Assembly: GCA_016432625.1 (NCBI GenBank) | Contig: CP066697.1 | Span: 151,113 to 215,112, forward strand | Length of the DNA: 64,000 nt | Source: Candidatus Berkelbacteria bacterium | GTDB taxonomy: Bacteria > Patescibacteriota > UBA1384 > 2-12-FULL-50-11 | Direction of reading: 5' to 3' | Part shown: positions 3,757-51,644 of the stretch, in pieces | How the letters are laid out: every line of letters begins with the position of its first letter | Position numbering within the stretch: the stretch's first letter is position 1 | Made by a program: the position numbers and the translations under genes | Notes under the pieces: generated by a model | Told to the model about the DNA's origin: nothing | What the model saw: only the letters and a program-made list of their open reading frames with translations | Databases searched by the model: none

Positions 3757-5454
3757 TCAACCCGAAGAATTAAGGCACTTCGCTTTTATCCGGCGGACGC
3801 CCTGCGAAGACGCCTCTTCTTTGACAATCTCGAATTTGCCTAACTCGCCTGTTCGTTTGACGTGTGGGCCGCCGCATAATTCCTTAGAAAAATCCCCAAT
3901 TTTGTATACCGTAACTTTATCACCGTATTTCTGACCAAATTCAGCCAGCGCGCCACTCTTTAGCGCCGCCTCTTTATCCATTTCTTCGCAAACTACGCTC
4001 ATGTCAGCTTTAATTTTTTCGTTGACGATCTGCTCAACTTTTTTCAGCTCCTCATCAGTTAATTTTCGGTCGAAAGCAAAGTCTATTCTTAGCCTGTCGC
4101 TGGTTACATTCGAGCCGCGTTGGACGACCGACTCGCCTAAAACTTGGCGCAGGGCAGCGAGCAATAGGTGATGGGCTGTGTGATGTTGGATGGTTTTCTC
4201 CTCATGATCCGCTAGACCCCCTTTGAATTGTTTGTCTAGGCCCGCGCGCGAAACCTCCTGGTGAGCCGAAAATAGCTTGGCGAAATGTTCCGCGTCAACT
4301 TTCCACCCCAAGCTAATCAAATGCTCCAAAACCATTTCTTTGGGGAAGCCGAATGATTCGTACATGTAAAAAGCAAGTTCGGTAATTTTCTTTTCGTCGC
4401 GATCGTCGCTCGAAGCGAGCCATTTATCGAGGTACCCTTTTGCACGGGTCATATTGCTTTCAAACTGGCTTTTCTCTCTGCCAAAAACTTCCATAATTTC
4501 GGTGGCGCTCTTTAACTCGTATGTCTTGCCGTAAAACGTCCGAATTTGATTAACCGCTTCCTGCCATTTTAATTCTGCTGCGATGTTCGAGCCTAAGAAA
4601 ATTGCCTTCCGTATTAAACGGCGCAAGACATACTCGCGACCTTTATTGGCCGGCGTAATATCGGAGGAGACCAAAAAGACGATCGCTCGCAAGTGGTCGA
4701 TAATCACCCGCGCTTCAACCCTTTTGGATGAACCAATACTTTCAACCCAACTTTTAAACGGCTCGATTTCCCAAACGGAATTCTTACCTTGCAGCGTGGC
4801 ACTCAGGCGTTCCAGGCCGCTGCCGGTATCGACGCCAGGCGTGTCGAGTTTGGCGAACTTGCCATCGCGATCGCAGTGATACTCATTGAAGACCAAGTTC
4901 CAGACTTCAACGCCGTCAATATAAATTTCTGTTGTCGGGCCGCAGGGACCCTCGTCGCCAGTTGGGCCCCAGAAATTGTCTTCGCGAGCGGCGCGTCGAA
5001 TATCTTTAACGCCTAGCACCTGCCAGATTCCCTCGGACTCAGTGTCGGCTGGTATCTCTTTGTCCCCACCAAACACGGTCACATAAACTCGGTCTTCGCT
5101 AACGCCGAGCTCGTCACGAACAAAGCGCCAGGCTTCATCTATCGCCACTTTCTTCATGGCCATGGAACTCTTTTCGCCAAAGCGGAAATTGCCCAGCATC
5201 TCGAAACTTGTTAGGTGAGTGTCGTCGCCGACTTCAGCGATATCGCTAGTGCGGATTACAGGCTGAACTGTGGCAACTTGTGGTGCTGGGGCATCGCTCG
5301 GGTGGGTGTAGAACGGCTTGAACTGTTGCATGCCGGCGGTTGTGAAGAGCACTGAAGGGTCGTTCTGCGGCACAAGCGGCGAAGGCGGCACGACGTCGTA
5401 GCCACTTTCCTGAAAATAATCCAAAAATTTTTGCCGTAAGGAAACGAGGTCCAT
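3757..5454 (-). CDS. alaS: Alanine--tRNA ligase, short form (catalytic plus editing domains, no C-Ala domain)
   Basis: N-terminus FLDYFQESGYDVVPPSPLVPQNDPSVLFTTAGMQQFKPFY. Editing-domain HTAHHLL and CGGPHV motifs near the C-terminus. Only 565 aa. Confidence 0.9.
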   Translation of the reverse strand: MDLVSLRQKFLDYFQESGYDVVPPSPLVPQNDPSVLFTTAGMQQFKPFYTHPSDAPAPQVATVQPVIRTSDIAEVGDDTHLTSFEMLGNFRFGEKSSMAMKKVAIDEAWRFVRDELGVSEDRVYVTVFGGDKEIPADTESEGIWQVLGVKDIRRAAREDNFWGPTGDEGPCGPTTEIYIDGVEVWNLVFNEYHCDRDGKFAKLDTPGVDTGSGLERLSATLQGKNSVWEIEPFKSWVESIGSSKRVEARVIIDHLRAIVFLVSSDITPANKGREYVLRRLIRKAIFLGSNIAAELKWQEAVNQIRTFYGKTYELKSATEIMEVFGREKSQFESNMTRAKGYLDKWLASSDDRDEKKITELAFYMYESFGFPKEMVLEHLISLGWKVDAEHFAKLFSAHQEVSRAGLDKQFKGGLADHEEKTIQHHTAHHLLLAALRQVLGESVVQRGSNVTSDRLRIDFAFDRKLTDEELKKVEQIVNEKIKADMSVVCEEMDKEAALKSGALAEFGQKYGDKVTVYKIGDFSKELCGGPHVKRTGELGKFEIVKEEASSQGVRRIKAKCLNSSG

Positions 5455-19351: not shown

Positions 19352-19957
19352 TTAGCGTTGCAGATTGCGGAGTTGCTCGTACAGATCACGTTCTTCGCGT
19401 GAGGGGCGCTTGGGGATTTCAATATGGATAACAACCGTCAAATCTCCCCGACCGCGGCGAGTTTGGGCGCCTTTGCCACGAAAACGAAAAGCCGCGCCTT
19501 CGGGTGTGCCGGGTGGAATCTTCAGCTCGATCTCATCGCCAAAATTGGTTTTGAAACGAACCGTGTCGCCAAGCACCGCTTGCGGGATCGAAACTGCCAA
19601 TTGAACCTGGACTTGAGAGAAGGCTGATTCGAACAAATCCTCAAAAATTGAGCCAAAACCTCCGCCGCCCTGACCACTAAAACTGCTGAAGTCGAAACCC
19701 CCAGCTTGACTCCCGAAACCGCTTTGGCTGCCAAAACCGGCTCCGGCCCGTGCCCCAGCGTGGCCGAACTGATCGTACTGGGCTCGTTTGTTTTTATCCC
19801 CCAGTACCTGGTAGGCCTCGTTTATTTCCTGGAACGCCGCCTTATCCCCACCTTTGTCGGGATGTAATTTGTGCGCTTTCGAACGGTAGGCCTTTTTAAT
19901 TTCGCCATCGCTGGCACCGCGGGGAACACCTAAAACTTCGTAAAAATCTCGAGCCAT
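19352..19957 (-). CDS. dnaJ: DnaJ-like co-chaperone, truncated architecture (J domain, G/F region, one C-terminal beta domain, no zinc finger)
   Basis: [35 protein letters not shown] with the HPD tripeptide, followed by a G/F-rich stretch. No CxxCxGxG repeats. 201 aa. Confidence 0.8.
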
Positions 19958-19979: not shown

Positions 19980-20008
19980 AATGTCAAGTTTGCTTTACAG
20001 AGTATAAT
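19980..20008. promoter_or_regulatory. Divergent dnaJ-like / ybjQ promoter region containing operator copy O3 (TGTCAAG-TTTG-CTTTACA, 19982-19999)
   Basis: On the minus strand the palindrome reads TGTAAAG-CAAA-CTTGACA, with GACATT at the position where the other two copies have TACAAT/TACATT. On the plus strand a TATAAT at 20003-20008 lies 6 nt before the ybjQ ATG. Confidence 0.5.
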
Positions 20009-20014
20009 GAATTC

Positions 20015-20338
20015 ATGGATAAGGAAAATATTACAACCTCTTTTGAGCTACCGAATAAGAAAATTGTTAAAAATTTCGGCCTAGTCCGCGGCATAACCGT
20101 TCGCTCCCGATCGATTTTTGGGACAATCGGCGGCTCGCTGCAGACCATTCTTGGCGGCAATATCACCCTGTTTACCGAGCTGTGTGAGAAAACGCGCCAG
20201 GAAGCCTATGCCCTGATGGTCAAACACGCGGAAGAGATGGGCGCCAACGGCATTGTTATGGTTCGCTATGACGCCAACGAAGTTATGAGCGGTGTAACCG
20301 AAGTGCTCTGCTACGGCAGTGCAGTGGAGGTTGAATAA
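20015..20338 (+). CDS. ybjQ: YbjQ/UPF0145 family protein
   Basis: 107 aa. GLVRGITVRSRSI...GGNITLFTELCEKTRQEAYALMVKHAEEMGANGIVMVRYD matches the YbjQ pattern. Confidence 0.8.
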   Translation: MDKENITTSFELPNKKIVKNFGLVRGITVRSRSIFGTIGGSLQTILGGNITLFTELCEKTRQEAYALMVKHAEEMGANGIVMVRYDANEVMSGVTEVLCYGSAVEVE

Positions 20339-22593: not shown

Positions 22594-23952
22594 TTATTCT
22601 TTGAGACCCATCTCGGACCGTATATCGCTAATAAAAGTCTTCGCTTTCTCTTCAAGTATATTTTGATCGGGCCTGACACTTGCTAGGAACAACTCGAAAT
22701 ATTTTAGTGCCTTAACTAGGTCGCGCAACTTTTTATAGGCAATGTAGCCAAGCCAAAAATGCAGTTGATTCCTATCAGGATAAGTTTCAAGGAGATTCAA
22801 ACAAAACTGTTCAACCTCTTGGATGGTAAGCCATTCTTCGGAATACTCATGCTCAACAATTTTCCTCGAGGACTTATAAGCCTCGTCGTATTCCGATAAC
22901 CAATAATGCAAAAATGCATCGCTGTACCTCCACTCCTGGGCTCCATTAGCTAAGTTCTTCGCAAGCGCGATTTCTTGTTGCGCCGCCTTCGCATCACCTT
23001 CCTTGAATAGTTCCACGGCTCTTACTAGATGAAAACCGTACTGATTAGGGTAATAACTCTGTGCTCTTTTCGAAAACGTTGAGTACGACGCTAGGTCATC
23101 CTTCAGTAAAGACATTCGTGCTTTTAGCAAATAACTACCTGCCAATAATTGTTTGGCCTTGATCTTTACTTCCTCAATATTTGGAGGTAAATCATTTCTT
23201 TGAAAAAGCTTATCGTCAATTAGGCGCTCGTGGAGGGTTATTGCGAGGTTGACGTCACCAGATAAGAATGCAGCAATACCTACTATGTACTTTGCCGATA
23301 AATAAACAAAATCAGCGGTTAAGGCGAACCCTCTAAATCGGAATTCTTCTAACATCTCCACTTCTTTAGGTAGGGATCTTACAAAGTCGGCAGATAATTT
23401 AAACTGACTGTTTTTGTCTATCGGTGAGTGCACTACTAAACCACTTAAATCAATAAAAATCTTTTCCTTTTCTCCATCAGGACGTTTTTTAACGTCTCCG
23501 AAGACGAAATAGTGTCCATGGACTGTCTCATTTATTGTTCGCGCAATTTCATAGTTTTTTACTTTCTCGGCAATATGGTTGGGTACTTTTACTACTGTGA
23601 CTAACTCACTCAATCCATCTGCGACTAAGTTTTTTCTTACCTGGTCAAGAAAGTCCTTTTTAGCATCTATTTCCTCGAGGTTATCCTCGCTGTAAAGCGC
23701 GAAAACTAATCCAAGCTTCCCCTCGGGTATTTTTGGAAGCCACTTCCTTACTACTATCCAAGCAACTATCTCAATTAAGAGTAATACTACGAGGCCCCAT
23801 CTTAGATAACTGACTCCAAAAAGTTCTAAGAGGGGTTTATAGATAGCCGCAAATATAATGCCCGTTAACACTACCGTGACTAATAATCCGCGAAAACTTG
23901 CAAAGTTAATTCTGATGTATGACAAATAGGGTCGCAGTTTATCAATTGGCAT
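22594..23952 (-). CDS. Two-TM membrane protein with a central alpha/beta-like domain and C-terminal TPR-like repeats (AT-rich islet)
   Basis: The ATG at 23952 gives MPIDKLRP... The track ORF instead begins at a TTG at 24000, immediately after the dnaK stop. TM helices occupy residues 30-90. The C-terminal half is helical-repeat-like (YGFHLVRAVELFKEGDAKAAQQEIALAKNL...). Confidence 0.6.
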   Translation of the reverse strand: MPIDKLRPYLSYIRINFASFRGLLVTVVLTGIIFAAIYKPLLELFGVSYLRWGLVVLLLIEIVAWIVVRKWLPKIPEGKLGLVFALYSEDNLEEIDAKKDFLDQVRKNLVADGLSELVTVVKVPNHIAEKVKNYEIARTINETVHGHYFVFGDVKKRPDGEKEKIFIDLSGLVVHSPIDKNSQFKLSADFVRSLPKEVEMLEEFRFRGFALTADFVYLSAKYIVGIAAFLSGDVNLAITLHERLIDDKLFQRNDLPPNIEEVKIKAKQLLAGSYLLKARMSLLKDDLASYSTFSKRAQSYYPNQYGFHLVRAVELFKEGDAKAAQQEIALAKNLANGAQEWRYSDAFLHYWLSEYDEAYKSSRKIVEHEYSEEWLTIQEVEQFCLNLLETYPDRNQLHFWLGYIAYKKLRDLVKALKYFELFLASVRPDQNILEEKAKTFISDIRSEMGLKE

Positions 23953-24000
23953 CAGCCTATAAAGAAAGAGAGCTGATAGCTCTCTTTCTTGTTTCTCCAA

Positions 24001-25998
24001 TTAGTCTTTTTTGTCCCCGTCATCTTTTGGTTCTTCCGGCACATTTGTGTCCGGGGTGCCATCCGCCTTCGCCGAGGCTTCGTCGGATGAATCGTCTTTG
24101 GGGAGTTCTTCTTCCGGCTTCGGCTGTCCCTCCTGCGCTGAAGCTTCCTCCTTCGCAGATGCTTCGGAGGACGAGTCGGCGGGCGAGTCATACATCGCGG
24201 CGCCGACTTTTTGGAGGGCGGCACTCAATTTTTCCGCCTCCTCTTTGATTTTGTCTTTATCGTCGTTGTGGATGACGGCTTTGACGGCGGTAACGGCGTC
24301 TTCGACTTCGCGTTTGTCGTCCGGTTTGATCTTATCGCCCGCGTCTTTGAGGGTTTTTTCGCTCAAGTGAATAAGGTTTTCGGCGGCGTTTCGTTCTTCG
24401 ACCAGCTCTTTTTTCTTGGCGTCGTCGGCGGCGTGAGCCTCGGCCTCGGTTTTCATCTTTTCGATCTCTTCTTTGGATAGCCCACTCGAAGCCGTAATGG
24501 TGATGTGTTGTTCTTTGGAAGTGGCTTTGTCTTTGGCTTTGACGTTCAGAATTCCGTTTGCGTCGATGTCAAACGTCACCTCAACTTGCGGGACGCCGCG
24601 GGGAGCCGGTGGAATACCATCGAGATGGAACTTACCTAGCGTCCGGTTGTCGGAGGCCATTGGCCTTTCGCCTTGTAAGACGTGGATTTCCACAGATGGC
24701 TGGTTGTCGCTGGCCGTGGAAAACGTTTCCGTTTTTGAAGCGGGAATAGTGGTATTGCGCTCAATGAGCGGCGTCATTACTCCACCCAGAGTTTCGAGAC
24801 CCAAGGTTAGCGGGGTGACGTCGAGCAGAAGAATATCCTTAACTTCGCCTGATAAGACGCCGCCGTTAATGGCCGCGCCTAAAGCAACCGCTTCGTCGGG
24901 GTTAACGCCTTTCGATGGCTCTTTGCCAAAAACATCTTTAACAACTTGCTGAATCATCGGCATGCGGGTCATCCCACCGACCAAGATAACTTCGTCAATG
25001 TCAGATTTGGTGAGTTTGGCGTCTTTCAAAGCGGCTTCGCAGATGCCTCGGGTTTTCTTGATGAGGTCGCCAACTAAACTTTCCAATTTTGCGCGCGACA
25101 GATTCATCTGCAGGTTTTTTGGACCGTCAGCGTCAGCGGTAATAAACGGCAAGTTGATCTCGGCTTCCTGGGTTTGAGAGAGCTCGATCTTGGCTTTTTC
25201 AGCTGCTTCTTTGACCCGTTGCATAGCCATAGCGTCGCCAGTTAGATCGACACCCTCTTTGGCTTTGAATTCGTCGACGATCCAGTTCATCACTTGAATG
25301 TCGATGTCGTCTCCACCGAGGTGAGTATCACCGTTCGTCGAGAGCACTTCGAAGCTGGATTCGCCTTTGTCTTCGCCAATTTCGATGATGGTGATATCAA
25401 ATGTTCCACCACCAAAGTCGTAAACGGCGACTTTCTGGTCTTTTTTGTCTTCTTTGTTAATGCCGTAGGCGAGAGCCGCGGCGGTTGGTTCGTTGATAAT
25501 GCGCTTAACTTCGAGGCCAGCAATGGTGCCGGCGTCTTTGGTAGCCTGGCGCTGGGAGTCGTTAAAGTATGCCGGGACGGTAATAACAGCGCCGTCGACT
25601 TTTTCGCCGAGATAAGCCTCGGCATCAGCTTTGATTTTGGCCAGGATCATTGAGGAGATTTCTTGGGGGGTAGACTCGTTTTCGGCCATTTTGACCTTAA
25701 CGCCATCGCCGCTCTTTACAATTTTGTAAGGCATCAGTTTGATGTCGCGCTGAACTTCTTCGTCAGTGAAGCTACGACCCATTAAGCGTTTAACAGAGTA
25801 GATAGTATTTTCCGGATTGGTGACAGCTTGGCGCTTGGCGAGCGTGCCAACAAGGCGTTCGCCTTTTTTATTGACCGCGACGATGGACGGCACTAAGTTG
25901 CCGCCCTCAGCGGTTGGGATCATTTTGGCTTTACCGCTTTCGATGACGGCTGAAGCCGAGTTAGTTGTTCCCAGGTCAATTCCGATTATCTTAGACAT
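24001..25998 (-). CDS. dnaK: Chaperone DnaK (Hsp70) with an acidic low-complexity C-terminal tail
   Basis: [22 protein letters not shown]-type motif ([12 protein letters not shown]), [11 protein letters not shown]. The start is set at the ATG at 25998 rather than the in-frame GTG at 26004. Confidence 0.95.
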
Positions 25999-26056
25999 TT
26001 GCACCCCATTCTATGTCTGAGATATCCAAAACGGTGTTTTTGATAATCTTTCCCAT
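25991..26056 (-). CDS. Possible 21-codon upstream ORF overlapping the dnaK start
   Basis: ATG at 26056 with an AAGGAGGAGAG tract about 10 nt upstream. Encodes [21 protein letters not shown]. Its stop (TAA, 25993-25991) lies 2 codons after the dnaK ATG in another frame. Confidence 0.35.
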
Positions 26057-26099: not shown

Positions 26100-26127
26100 A
26101 TTGTAAAGTTTCCTTTACATTTGTCAA
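26100..26127 (-). promoter_or_regulatory. dnaK promoter with embedded operator copy O1 (TGTAAAG-N4-CTTTACA, 26102-26119)
   Basis: Minus strand reads TTGACA-AA-TGTAAAG-GAAA-CTT-TACAAT. The -35 and -10 boxes are 16 nt apart and the perfect 7-bp-arm palindrome overlaps the -10 box. Confidence 0.65.
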
Positions 26128-50155: not shown

Positions 50156-50713
50156 ATGAAAGGTTTAACGCTACTTATTGTGATCGCGCTGGTTATCATC
50201 GGCGCGTTTATGTTGGTTCCAAAAAAACAAAATGAAGGAGGCGCTGTGACAACAACTACCAATAATACTGCCGTAAAAAAAGCAATAATTGAAACCGATA
50301 AGGGCAATATCGAGCTCGATCTTTACCCTGACGTGGCGCCAAAGACTGTGGATAACTTTATTCAAAAAGCTAACGCCGGTTTCTTTAATGGCTTGAAGTT
50401 TCACCGAGTGGAAGATTGGGTTATTCAGGGCGGTGATCCGCTGAGCCGTGATGAGTCTCAAAAAGACTTGTGGGGCACTGGTGGCGGCAATATTGATACC
50501 GAGCTTTCGGACAAACCGTTCGGCGTTGGCGCTTTGGGCGTAGCCAGAGGCAACGAGATAAAGATCTCGAACGACTCGCAATTCTTCATAACCAAAAAGG
50601 ACGCGCAGTTTTTAAACAGCCAGTACACGATCTTTGGTCAAGTCACCGCCGGCATGGACGTCGTTGAAAAAATCGCCATCGGCGACCTCATCAAATCCGT
50701 AACTATTAAATAA
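50156..50713 (+). CDS. ppiB: Membrane-anchored cyclophilin-type peptidyl-prolyl isomerase
   Basis: FHRVEDWVIQGGDP and SNDSQFFIT motifs. N-terminal TM helix. Confidence 0.9.
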   Translation: MKGLTLLIVIALVIIGAFMLVPKKQNEGGAVTTTTNNTAVKKAIIETDKGNIELDLYPDVAPKTVDNFIQKANAGFFNGLKFHRVEDWVIQGGDPLSRDESQKDLWGTGGGNIDTELSDKPFGVGALGVARGNEIKISNDSQFFITKKDAQFLNSQYTIFGQVTAGMDVVEKIAIGDLIKSVTIK

Positions 50714-50900
50714 CAAGCGAAAAACGGGCGAATCTAACTATGCAGGTTATTCACCCGTTTTTCACCTTGTCCACGACAGTGAGCGTGCTTGGGTGGGGAG
50801 TGCAGAGGGGTAGGGCAGCGCTTCGCAAGTAGCACCCGTACCCCTCTGCAAAACAAAAAAGCGCCGTAGCGGCGCCTTTTGCTTCGCTTGAAAAGCGAGT

Positions 50901-51605
50901 CTACTTCTTCTTCACCTGAATCTTCGTGGTCTTCGGCTTAGCCGGTTCCACTTTCGGCGCCACTATCTTAAGCGTCCCGTTTTCGAGTTTGGCCTCAACC
51001 TTGTCTTCTTTGATCGGCGTGGCAAATCGAATTGAACGACTGAACTCACTGTGTTGCCACTCACGACGCACAACATTCTTGCCTTCTTTCTCATTTTCGT
51101 CGTGCTTTTTAGTGCCAGTGATAGTTAGTGTATCTTCCGTCATCTCGATCTGAACATCGTCTTCGGCGTAACCCGGAACCTGTAATTCGATTTCGTACTC
51201 TTTGTCGGTTTCATGAATATTCATGGCGCCGGCAACGGTGCCCAGTGCTCGCGACCAATCACCACGACCAAAATTACGGTTGACCATCTCGCTCATCTCT
51301 TCTTGCATTCGATCCATTGCCTGAAACGGACTCCATGGTGCTAATTGCATCTTCGACTGCTCACCTCCTTCCTGAATTTCGTTATCGGTTGCTTGCTGAA
51401 CAATGTTTATGCCTTCGATTAAATCCGGCAAATTACAGCGGAAAAATTCCATCAGTGAAATCAAAACTGGCGCGCTAGGCAGATACTCGCCACGTTCAAG
51501 CGAGATTATCGATTGGCGAGATACGTTTAATTCCCGAGCCAATTCTTCTTGGCTCAGATCTCGCTGGGTGCGTAACTGGCGTAGTAATAAACGGAATCGA
51601 GGCAT
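50901..51605 (-). CDS. Fusion protein: N-terminal XRE/Cro-type helix-turn-helix domain plus a complete Hsp20/alpha-crystallin small heat-shock protein
   Basis: Residues 1-65 (LRQLRTQRDLSQEELARELNVSRQSIISLERGEYLPSAPVLISLMEFF) fit the HTH_3 pattern. Residues about 125-215 (HETDKEYEIELQVPGYAEDDVQIEMTEDTLTITG...FSRSIRFATPIKEDKVEAKLENGTLKIVAPK) fit the alpha-crystallin domain. The C-terminal KIQV is an I-x-I/V motif. Confidence 0.8.
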   Translation of the reverse strand: MPRFRLLLRQLRTQRDLSQEELARELNVSRQSIISLERGEYLPSAPVLISLMEFFRCNLPDLIEGINIVQQATDNEIQEGGEQSKMQLAPWSPFQAMDRMQEEMSEMVNRNFGRGDWSRALGTVAGAMNIHETDKEYEIELQVPGYAEDDVQIEMTEDTLTITGTKKHDENEKEGKNVVRREWQHSEFSRSIRFATPIKEDKVEAKLENGTLKIVAPKVEPAKPKTTKIQVKKK

Positions 51606-51615
51606 TTATACGCCT

Positions 51616-51644
51616 AATGTAAAGTAAACTTTACATAGCGTCAA
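51616..51644 (-). promoter_or_regulatory. Promoter of the HTH-Hsp20 gene with embedded operator copy O2 (TGTAAAG-N4-CTTTACA, 51618-51635)
   Basis: Minus strand reads TTGACG-CTA-TGTAAAG-TTTA-CTT-TACATT (17-nt spacer). The ATG lies 10 nt after the -10 box, which implies a near-leaderless mRNA. Confidence 0.65.

Follow-up and report, generated by a model that had tools for sequence, protein, structure and literature searches.

What is the function of a single polypeptide that carries both a DNA-binding domain and a complete chaperone? The question is raised by one gene in a 64,000-nucleotide stretch of contig CP066697.1 of Candidatus Berkelbacteria bacterium, a member of the Patescibacteria (this whole stretch is the window, to which positions refer unless a locus is named), in which a helix-turn-helix (HTH) domain of the Cro/C1 (XRE) type is fused to a small heat-shock protein (sHSP). 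An initial annotation, made from the letters of the DNA, had proposed a stress-sensing repressor. The explanation that best accounts for the observations, and which is probably correct, is that of an autoregulated heat-shock repressor of Patescibacteria whose chaperone part senses stress. That the fusion protein is the operator-binding heat-shock repressor of these bacteria is highly probable; that its sHSP module is the sensor, through titration or a change of oligomeric state, is slightly favoured. Physical binding, repression and sensing through the chaperone module are what we infer from the patterns described below.

The gene and the parts of its product are placed as follows.

50901..51605, minus strand: HTH-sHSP fusion gene, 234 codons, ATG start, stop codon included (list of open reading frames, ORFs)
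51420..51584, minus strand: Cro/C1 (XRE) HTH domain of the CylR2-like type, residues 8-62 (Pfam, AF2 and PDB sequence matches)
51351..51419, minus strand: variable linker, residues 63-85 (alignment; predicted local distance difference test score, pLDDT, below 50 in AF2)
51231..51350, minus strand: sHSP N-terminal region, residues 86-125, motif M-Q-L-x-P-W-x-P-F (two homologue alignments)
50946..51230, minus strand: alpha-crystallin domain, residues 126-220 (Pfam, AF2 and Foldseek)
50913..50921, minus strand: C-terminal I-x-V motif, I229-Q-V231, the sHSP oligomerisation tail (alignment)

The initial annotation described one uninterrupted reading frame of 234 codons, expected HTH_3 and HSP20 in one chain and claimed a full sHSP with N-terminal region, alpha-crystallin domain and KIQV tail, and on all of these points it was borne out. 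A Pfam search of the protein placed HTH_3 (PF01381) at residues 8-62 (E 1e-14) and HSP20 (PF00011) at residues 130-231 (E 8e-21), together with weak CS and ArsA_HSP20 matches. In NCBIfam sub-threshold sHSP and XRE matches were obtained, and in neither collection was there an HrcA- or HspR-like family match. The HTH peptide that had been quoted, LSQEELARELNVSRQSIISLERGEYLPS, and the C-terminal K-I-Q-V were both found in the protein.

A single-sequence AF2 model (mean pLDDT 56) was discarded and the alignment-based model was used, which has two confident domains and a low-confidence linker. Residues 11-60 of the HTH reach a pLDDT of about 85-91, with five predicted helices (8-14, 19-26, 30-37, 45-55 and 59-62), and the PDB sequence matches of this domain are a PbsX-family regulator (9k3w), CylR2 (2xiu and 1utx; E 4e-6 over residues 8-64) and DdrO. 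The amino acids of the linker are poorly conserved, with the exception of G-G-E (or K-E) just before a conserved Met. This Met opens the N-terminal motif, which in the window reads M86-Q-L-A-P-W-S-P-F and is kept in most family members, and a helix at residues 93-108 is predicted there with low confidence. The alpha-crystallin domain has a pLDDT of mostly about 90, falling to 58-75 over residues 161-190, and its best 50 Foldseek matches in the PDB are all sHSPs (for example 1gme, 3w1z and 1shs). It contains the sHSP signatures F188-S-R190 and A205-K-L-E-N-G210-T-L212; in 54 homologues R190, A205 and G210 never vary, and conservation is at least 90% for F188 and L212 as well as for I229 and V231 of the tail. 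Judged by its motifs, the C-terminal part of 149 residues carries every hallmark of a working non-metazoan sHSP. Among the PDB sequence and fold matches no solved chain covers both the HTH and the sHSP domain.

The trivial explanation for such a protein would be an assembly chimera, a frameshift or a wrongly called ORF joining two genes that are in fact separate, and database entries of 147-152 amino acids with 62-76% identity, which contain HSP20 only, might be taken in its favour. These entries were examined as possible split genes and rejected: in one (L252) the start codon was mis-called, since the frame extends upstream through a complete HTH up to the operator-bearing promoter, and in another (L253) the entry is truncated by the end of the contig. 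Moreover, the identical 234-residue protein is encoded in three independent assemblies, namely the contig of the NCBI metagenome-assembled genome and the Logan assemblies SRR12113407 and SRR12113397, and it is 100% identical to the NCBI entry 'Hsp20 family protein [Candidatus Berkelbacteria bacterium]'. Since thousands of homologues also keep the fused frame, the probability of an artefact of this kind is negligible.

The query of this architecture across genomes proposed by the initial annotation found it conserved among relatives. More than 100 clusters with 44-86% identity retain HTH_3 and HSP20 in one frame. Further away lies a second branch, of about 30% identity to the window protein, with 4380 matches, the best 120 of which are all fusions; it also has a tail of the I/V-x-I/V type, for example KKITIKK. 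A mixed alignment of 16 proteins has both domains in every one of them. When a library of representatives at 50% identity was searched, 59 proteins scored E 1e-30 or better, and roughly 80-100 of the best 150 matches are full-length fusions. Judging from these searches, thousands of Patescibacteria homologues have the fused architecture, and the source names seen for them were always 'Hsp20 family protein' or similar. As a separate observation, four long proteins of the representative library, P0244 (1002 amino acids), P0250 (883), P0262 (703) and P0309 (1148), contain 8-13 tandem matches to the N-terminal, HTH-containing part of the profile.

If the fusion protein is a repressor, an operator should be expected, and a palindrome is present at three promoters of the window.

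51618..51635, no strand assigned: operator at the fusion gene's own promoter, TGTAAAGTTTACTTTACA on the gene strand and TGTAAAGTAAACTTTACA on the plus strand
51616..51644, minus strand: fusion-gene promoter, -35 TTGACG (51644-51639), 17-nucleotide spacer, -10 TACATT (51621-51616) (consensus scan)
26100..26127, minus strand: dnaK promoter-operator, -35 TTGACA (26127-26122), operator 26119-26102 with 0 mismatches, -10 TACAAT (26105-26100)
19982..19999, no strand assigned: operator with 1 mismatch (TGTCAAG arm) between dnaJ-like (19352-19957, minus strand) and ybjQ (20015-20338, plus strand)

The palindrome at the fusion gene had been described as a perfect 18-mer lying across the spacer and the -10 box. 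Its position was right, but it is not strictly a perfect 18-mer: it reads ATGTAAAGT-TT-ACTTTACAT, that is, perfect arms of 9 base pairs (bp) with two central bases (51617-51636), and the core conserved across genomes is TGTAAAG-N4-CTTTACA. The operator occupies the spacer between -35 and -10 and reaches into the -10 box, whose first four bases belong to it; the ATG follows 10 nucleotides after the -10 with no Shine-Dalgarno (SD) sequence. The statement that the same palindrome sits at the dnaK and dnaJ-like promoters also held. The dnaK core is placed 104 nucleotides upstream of dnaK (24001-25998), whose product was confirmed as HSP70 by Pfam, and the site between dnaJ-like (DnaJ and DnaJ_C in Pfam) and ybjQ (YbjQ_1) overlaps core promoter elements in both directions. 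Counting the dnaJ-like site with its one mismatch, the 64-kb window has three core sites where 0.14 would be expected, and none of 100 shuffles reached three. CIRCE (TTAGCACTC-N9-GAGTGCTAA) had not been seen near dnaK or grpE and, at up to 4 mismatches, it is absent from the whole window; HAIR (CTTGAGT-N7-ACTCAAG), at up to 2 mismatches, is likewise absent from it.

Conservation of the palindrome upstream of chaperone genes in related genomes, on which the proposal had been made to depend, was found for dnaK, groES-groEL, grpE, clpP, clpB and dnaJ-like genes. Eight orthologous loci (L001, L002 and L246-L251; 30-65% identity to the window protein, both branches) were fetched by exact protein identity with no DNA pattern. 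Each of the eight, 6.6-20.8 kb in length, contains exactly one perfect core site, always 3-5 nucleotides after TTGAC and directly upstream of the ATG of the fusion gene, which makes this gene a candidate for autoregulation through its own-promoter operator. In addition, a genome scan with the 14-base core, in one genome per species (185,579 species), gave at least 120 loci, and a metagenome scan in which TTGAC-N3-5 had to precede the core also gave at least 120; both are samples and not censuses, and the counts that follow apply to the matches listed. In the genome scan a chaperone or protease gene lies directly downstream of the site in 5 of the 13 loci named Patescibacteria or Berkelbacteria versus none of the 107 others (Fisher calculation, about 7e-6); these targets are dnaK (L071, L105 and L119), clpP (L111) and clpB (L058). 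The listed metagenome matches are followed by dnaK (12), groES (9, with groEL next in 7-8), grpE (5, heading grpE-dnaK-dnaJ-like operons), clpP (1) and fusion genes (17), besides about 30 genes for small membrane proteins of the DUF2178 type, which are the usual partners of stand-alone XRE proteins, 11 ParB genes and miscellaneous genes. Two or three separate heat-shock promoters with the operator occur on a single contig in the window and in L218, L119 and L123. The clpB site of L058 is double, with two identical palindromes (TGTAAAGACCTCTTTACA; 3777-3794 and 3835-3852) 58 bp apart and no recognisable -35.

In Patescibacteria the operator starts 2-4 nucleotides after TTGACA, its last four bases open the -10 box TACAnT, and the spacer is of 16-18 nucleotides. 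Because the -35 belongs to the search pattern of the metagenome scan, this geometry is partly built into that set; the same layout is nevertheless found in 11 of 11 Patescibacteria sites from the scan with no -35 in its pattern, and the sixth position of the -10, a base which is not in the search pattern, is T in 27 of the 27 heat-shock sites listed from metagenomes. The centres of the half-sites are 11 bp apart. Since a dimer on such an operator cannot but compete with RNA polymerase, this geometry is most naturally read as one of repression and not of activation. Many genes of the regulon have their ATG 6-10 nucleotides after the -10 with no SD, and their mRNAs should thus be leaderless or nearly so; examples are found at L111 4875-4903, L119 331-359, L117 3509-3537, L089 7384-7413, L247 9974-10003 and L251 2975-3003.

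Which protein recognises the palindrome is indicated by the genes next to it. In 32 of the 120 listed genome-scan loci a homologue of the HTH starts 0-200 bp (mostly 0-25 bp) downstream of the site, and among these are 29 stand-alone XRE proteins of about 65-71 amino acids and 3 fusions. The stand-alone relatives listed next to the palindrome belong to Bacillota, Chloroflexota, Proteobacteria and others. They have the recognition-helix residues (S/T)-R-Q-(S/T) and further positions in common with the fusions, and outside Patescibacteria their operator lies just after the -10 and is followed by SD and ATG. A characterised relative offers a comparison. The sole inverted repeat in the cylR1/cylL intergenic region of the Enterococcus faecalis cytolysin plasmid is TGTCAAG-N5-CTTGACA (TTGTCAAGTGTCACTTGACAA, L245 884-904), presumably the binding site of CylR2. 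Compared with the Patescibacteria operator one base per arm is different and the 5-nucleotide centre is one base wider, so that a search of the cyl promoter with the exact 7-N4-7 pattern gives no match and the related repeat is of the 7-N5-7 form; the cyl half-site is the same as the left arm of the dnaJ-like site in the window. CylR2 binds the cytolysin promoter in vitro (review PMC3709268). The co-occurrence across phyla is strong and, along with this one relative, suggests that the HTH of the fusion pairs with TGTAAAG-N4-CTTTACA. It was also stated initially that dimerisation of the alpha-crystallin domain provides what a palindrome-binding HTH needs. This part needs qualification: stand-alone CylR2-like relatives of 65-71 residues adjoin the same palindrome with no such domain, and the alpha-crystallin domain is therefore not needed for dimerisation of the HTH.

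The stand-alone genes form a widespread module of their own, in which a CylR2-like XRE gene of 65-71 codons is preceded by TGTAAAG-N4-CTTTACA and often paired with a small membrane protein of the DUF2178 type. It was seen in Bacillota, Chloroflexota, Proteobacteria, Spirochaetes and others, in loci of the genome scan (L003-L122, for example L033, L041, L046, L051, L073 and L080) and in about 30 of the metagenome loci (L123-L242). The palindrome of this module is sometimes duplicated, and the conservation of the operator across phyla is unusually high. CylR1 has a K-K-D-E-R motif, as do the DUF2178-type partners.

These stand-alone proteins suggest a different division of labour, in which the fusion would be a chaperone with a self-regulating tag: its HTH would control only its own gene, and a stand-alone CylR2-like XRE paralogue, signalled by a DUF2178/CylR1-type membrane partner, would bind the sites at dnaK, groES and elsewhere. 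Stand-alone XRE genes with the same operator and small membrane proteins are indeed common (the approximately 30 listed metagenome loci) and occur in Patescibacteria too (L012 and L054). Nevertheless, because a chaperone gene follows the site in none of the 107 listed loci outside Patescibacteria, the chaperone link tracks the fusion-bearing lineage and not the stand-alone family. The chaperone promoters also have the layout of the fusion gene, with the operator between -35 and -10, whereas outside Patescibacteria the operator of the stand-alone genes comes after the -10. Finally, the window has three sites and a single HTH of this family, that of the fusion; no stand-alone XRE paralogue was found within the 64 kb checked of the source contig of about 769 kb. 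We consider this division of labour improbable. The window fusion gene has no CylR1/DUF2178-type membrane-protein partner beside it, its neighbours being a MacB/FtsX-type ABC transporter and a cyclophilin, and the fused sHSP takes the place of that partner.

For a repressor of this type the following mechanism can be proposed. The CylR2-like XRE domain, as a dimer, would bind TGTAAAG-N4-CTTTACA, and the bound repressor would keep RNA polymerase off the dnaK, groES-groEL, grpE, clpP, clpB and dnaJ-like promoters and off its own. Unfolded proteins would draw the sHSP module into sHSP-client assemblies, or change its oligomeric state, by which the HTH would be removed from the DNA and the regulon derepressed. 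Once DnaK and ClpB had cleared the clients the repressor would be free again and the response would be shut off.

The signal could also be temperature itself. In that case heat would shift the oligomer equilibrium of the sHSP, or unfold the HTH or linker, and the affinity for DNA would fall with no client being bound. The evidence for a repressor is identical under both explanations, sHSP oligomers are known to rearrange with temperature, and those family members that lack the client-binding N-terminal region have retained the HTH together with the alpha-crystallin domain and the I-x-V tail. Direct temperature sensing is a property of RheA, CtsR and some HrcA proteins. Campylobacter HrcA is an example (PMC8533110). 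In the fusion, sequence offers nothing that separates this possibility from titration by clients, but most members have kept the P-W-x-P-F region, an argument for the importance of client binding. This N-terminal region is the usual client-binding part of sHSPs. An intrinsic thermosensor is rather unlikely, although it is the most probable of the competing explanations, and titration by clients or a change of oligomeric state is preferred.

A further feature of the gene bears on how the sHSP part might be used.

51361..51372, minus strand: internal SD-like sequence GGAAGGAGGTGA, within the linker codons E-G-G-E (sequence and duplex energy with the 16S tail)
51348..51350, minus strand: internal in-frame ATG (M86), first residue of the sHSP N-terminal region and predicted start of a product of 149 amino acids

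In the window the arrangement is GGAAGGAGGTGA-N10-ATG (51372-51348). The duplex of this SD with the 16S tail (-15.6 kcal/mol) is the strongest of 228 positions in the fusion gene and stronger than that at any of the 31 ORF starts measured in the window (median -3.7). Of 27 fusion genes, 22 have the ATG preceded by an SD-like site at or below -8 kcal/mol (median -11.2), and in 15 of these no other site in the gene is better than the internal SD; the 5'-terminal start of the fusion genes has no SD (median -1.7). The five exceptions are the short forms that lack the N-terminal region (L002, L136, L149 and L248) and L117, which has only a weak one. At synonymous positions, GGA GGT GA has been preserved in 8-9 of 9 genes, including cases in which Asp stands in place of Glu. 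Besides the window, a perfect internal SD with the in-frame ATG is found in L132, L176, L186, L202, L227, L236, L242, L247, L249, L250, L252 and L082, and in L252 the gene caller picked the internal start although the frame continues upstream through the HTH; the internal signal explains why gene callers occasionally annotate an ORF with Hsp20 only. This arrangement suggests that an sHSP-only isoform of 149 amino acids is made beside the full-length repressor. Alternatively the internal SD could make ribosomes pause or be left over from the fusion event, the latter being unlikely because it is conserved down to about 30% protein identity. The initial description of a single polypeptide is therefore right in that the fused chain is real, but it may be too simple, as the internal SD and ATG predict an additional product consisting of the sHSP only.

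A more speculative extension, which we regard as somewhat doubtful, is that one heat-inducible, autoregulated mRNA would give two proteins: a scarce full-length HTH-sHSP from the leaderless or SD-less 5' AUG and an abundant canonical sHSP from the internal SD and M86. The two would assemble together through the alpha-crystallin domain and the I-x-V tail, and through the HTH-tagged subunits the promoters of dnaK, groESL, grpE, clpB, clpP and the gene itself would be informed directly of how much client the entire sHSP pool carries. Sensor, chaperone and repressor would then be the same gene, as the master proteostasis circuit of Patescibacteria.

It could be argued that the alpha-crystallin domain has a purely structural task, oligomerisation, in a repressor which answers some other signal or is constitutive. 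There are indeed proteins in which HSP20-like and CS domains serve simply for interaction, and weak CS and ArsA_HSP20 matches were obtained here. However, the N-terminal region, F-x-R, A-x4-G-x-L and the I-x-V tail have all been kept, as they are in functional sHSPs, proteostasis genes alone make up the regulon, and the conserved internal start would give a canonical sHSP. Such a passive role is very unlikely, even less probable than control of the chaperone promoters by a paralogue.

Several observations weigh against a chaperone-sensing repressor of the whole heat-shock regulon. The alpha-crystallin domain could be merely an oligomerisation module, and the sHSP N-terminal region is missing in the short subgroup (L002, L136, L149 and L248). 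The AF2 model, with a pLDDT below 50 in the linker, is uninformative on the arrangement of the domains and on communication between them. The stand-alone XRE paralogues with the same operator in Patescibacteria (L012 and L054) could bind chaperone promoters. An operator upstream of the window's grpE was looked for and none was found. Moreover, a perfect CIRCE (TTAGCACTC-N9-GAGTGCTAA) lies at L058 3965-3991, beside the two operator sites of that locus, so the HrcA system apparently coexists there and has not been replaced everywhere.

Other features of the window and of the matched loci can be added. Downstream of the fusion gene there is one more element:

50856..50880, minus strand: intrinsic bidirectional terminator 3' of the fusion gene, common to the convergent cyclophilin gene (50156-50713)

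The cyclophilin-type peptidyl-prolyl isomerase gene at 50156-50713 (plus strand) is a conserved close downstream neighbour on the opposite strand across the first branch of the family; it is also present in L001, L002, L247, L248, L249, L252 and L253, and in the window and several loci it is directly convergent. The conserved upstream neighbour is a MacB/FtsX-type ABC transporter pair. The YbjQ (UPF0145) gene (20015-20338, plus strand) is divergent from the dnaJ-like gene and has the operator in common with it, and since a TATAAT box lies 3 nucleotides after the operator ybjQ may belong to the heat-shock regulon here. The dnaK leader, of about 95 nucleotides as estimated from the -10 (26105-26100) to the ATG (25998), contains an upstream ORF of 21 codons (25991-26056, minus strand) which starts with MGKII, like DnaK, and whose stop overlaps the dnaK ATG (25998-25996). 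The sole SD of the leader (AAGGAGG, 26077-26071) precedes this small ORF and not dnaK, and the ORF might encode a leader peptide, serve for translational coupling or be left over from a duplicated 5' end. An ORF of 468 codons (22594-24000, minus strand), with N-terminal hydrophobic segments in its product and no Pfam match, starts directly after the dnaK stop with no gap and is therefore probably co-transcribed with dnaK under the operator. In the metagenomes, 11 loci (L127, L128, L131, L139, L167, L180, L185, L203, L221, L226 and L229) have a near-identical promoter-operator context (TTGACAtctaTGTAAAGAAAGCTTTACA) 29 nucleotides upstream of a ParB-family gene (ParB_N, HTH_ParB and ParB_C). They probably come from one abundant taxon and were not counted in the regulon.

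The Patescibacteria (candidate phyla radiation) make up a large part of the diversity of bacteria, and to our knowledge almost nothing is known about their gene regulation. The present analysis offers them a named regulator, an operator, a promoter consensus (TTGACA-N16-18-TACAnT, often with leaderless mRNAs) and a coherent heat-shock regulon, and thousands of database entries named 'Hsp20 family protein' are probably transcription factors. Chaperone-feedback heat-shock repressors are an already known kind of regulator; what would be new is the DNA-binding family, the operator and the covalent chaperone-regulator architecture, possibly with a two-isoform design, across a whole superphylum. Such a protein would bring the chaperone-titration feedback known from sigma32-DnaK, HrcA-GroEL and HspR-DnaK together in a single gene, would do in transcription what the recently found sensor IbpA does in translation and could serve as a compact, portable switch responsive to protein aggregation. 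If the two-isoform reading is true, it would also be a new coupling of a chaperone pool to transcription.

The initial remark that no characterised regulator of this architecture is known agrees with full-text literature searches, in which no description of the fusion or of its operator was found (subscription-only papers were not covered). The known systems resemble it in different respects. HspR with its HAIR element and DnaK as co-repressor (Streptomyces, Mycobacterium and Helicobacter) is, like the proposed fusion repressor, a negative-feedback repressor of dnaK, clpB and related operons that depends on the chaperone load, with an operator that overlaps the promoter and with autoregulation. 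However, HspR is of the MerR type, binds the HAIR inverted repeat and relies on DnaK as a separate chaperone, whereas the fusion has an XRE-type HTH, the TGTAAAG-N4-CTTTACA operator and a covalently attached sHSP, with no HAIR in the window. HrcA with CIRCE and GroEL is similar in the content of its regulon (groESL and the dnaK operon) and in the logic of a repressor with feedback from the state of a chaperone, but the fusion has no homology to HrcA, the window has no CIRCE, and GroEL is not part of the protein.

CylR2, the cytolysin repressor of E. faecalis (PDB 1utx and 2xiu), is of the same HTH subfamily, with the same recognition-helix residues, and is also a small dimeric repressor. Unlike the fusion it has 66 amino acids, no chaperone domain and a toxin operon as target, and its signal is thought to come through CylR1. 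In RheA-hsp18 of Streptomyces albus and in archaeal HSR1/Phr a dedicated heat-sensitive repressor is genetically linked to an sHSP gene, but there two genes encode regulator and sHSP as distinct proteins, and the regulon is a small one. An internal start within a chaperone gene that yields a second in-frame product is known from ClpB, with its long and short forms. The shorter form of the fusion, in a pair of isoforms that is so far predicted, could likewise assemble with the long one, and only in the fusion would the long form carry a DNA-binding domain.

The closest logic is that of IbpA of Escherichia coli, an aggregation sensor which represses translation of its own mRNA and of rpoH (bioRxiv 10.1101/2020.04.20.050740; PMC10410725; PMC10474464). 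As is proposed for the fusion, the sHSP itself is the regulator: the free form represses heat-shock genes, aggregates relieve the repression, and the system is autoregulated. The likeness is a functional analogy only, as IbpA acts on translation and binds the 5' untranslated regions of mRNAs through the sHSP body, with no dedicated nucleic-acid-binding domain, whereas the fusion would control transcription, with a separate HTH on operators in the DNA.

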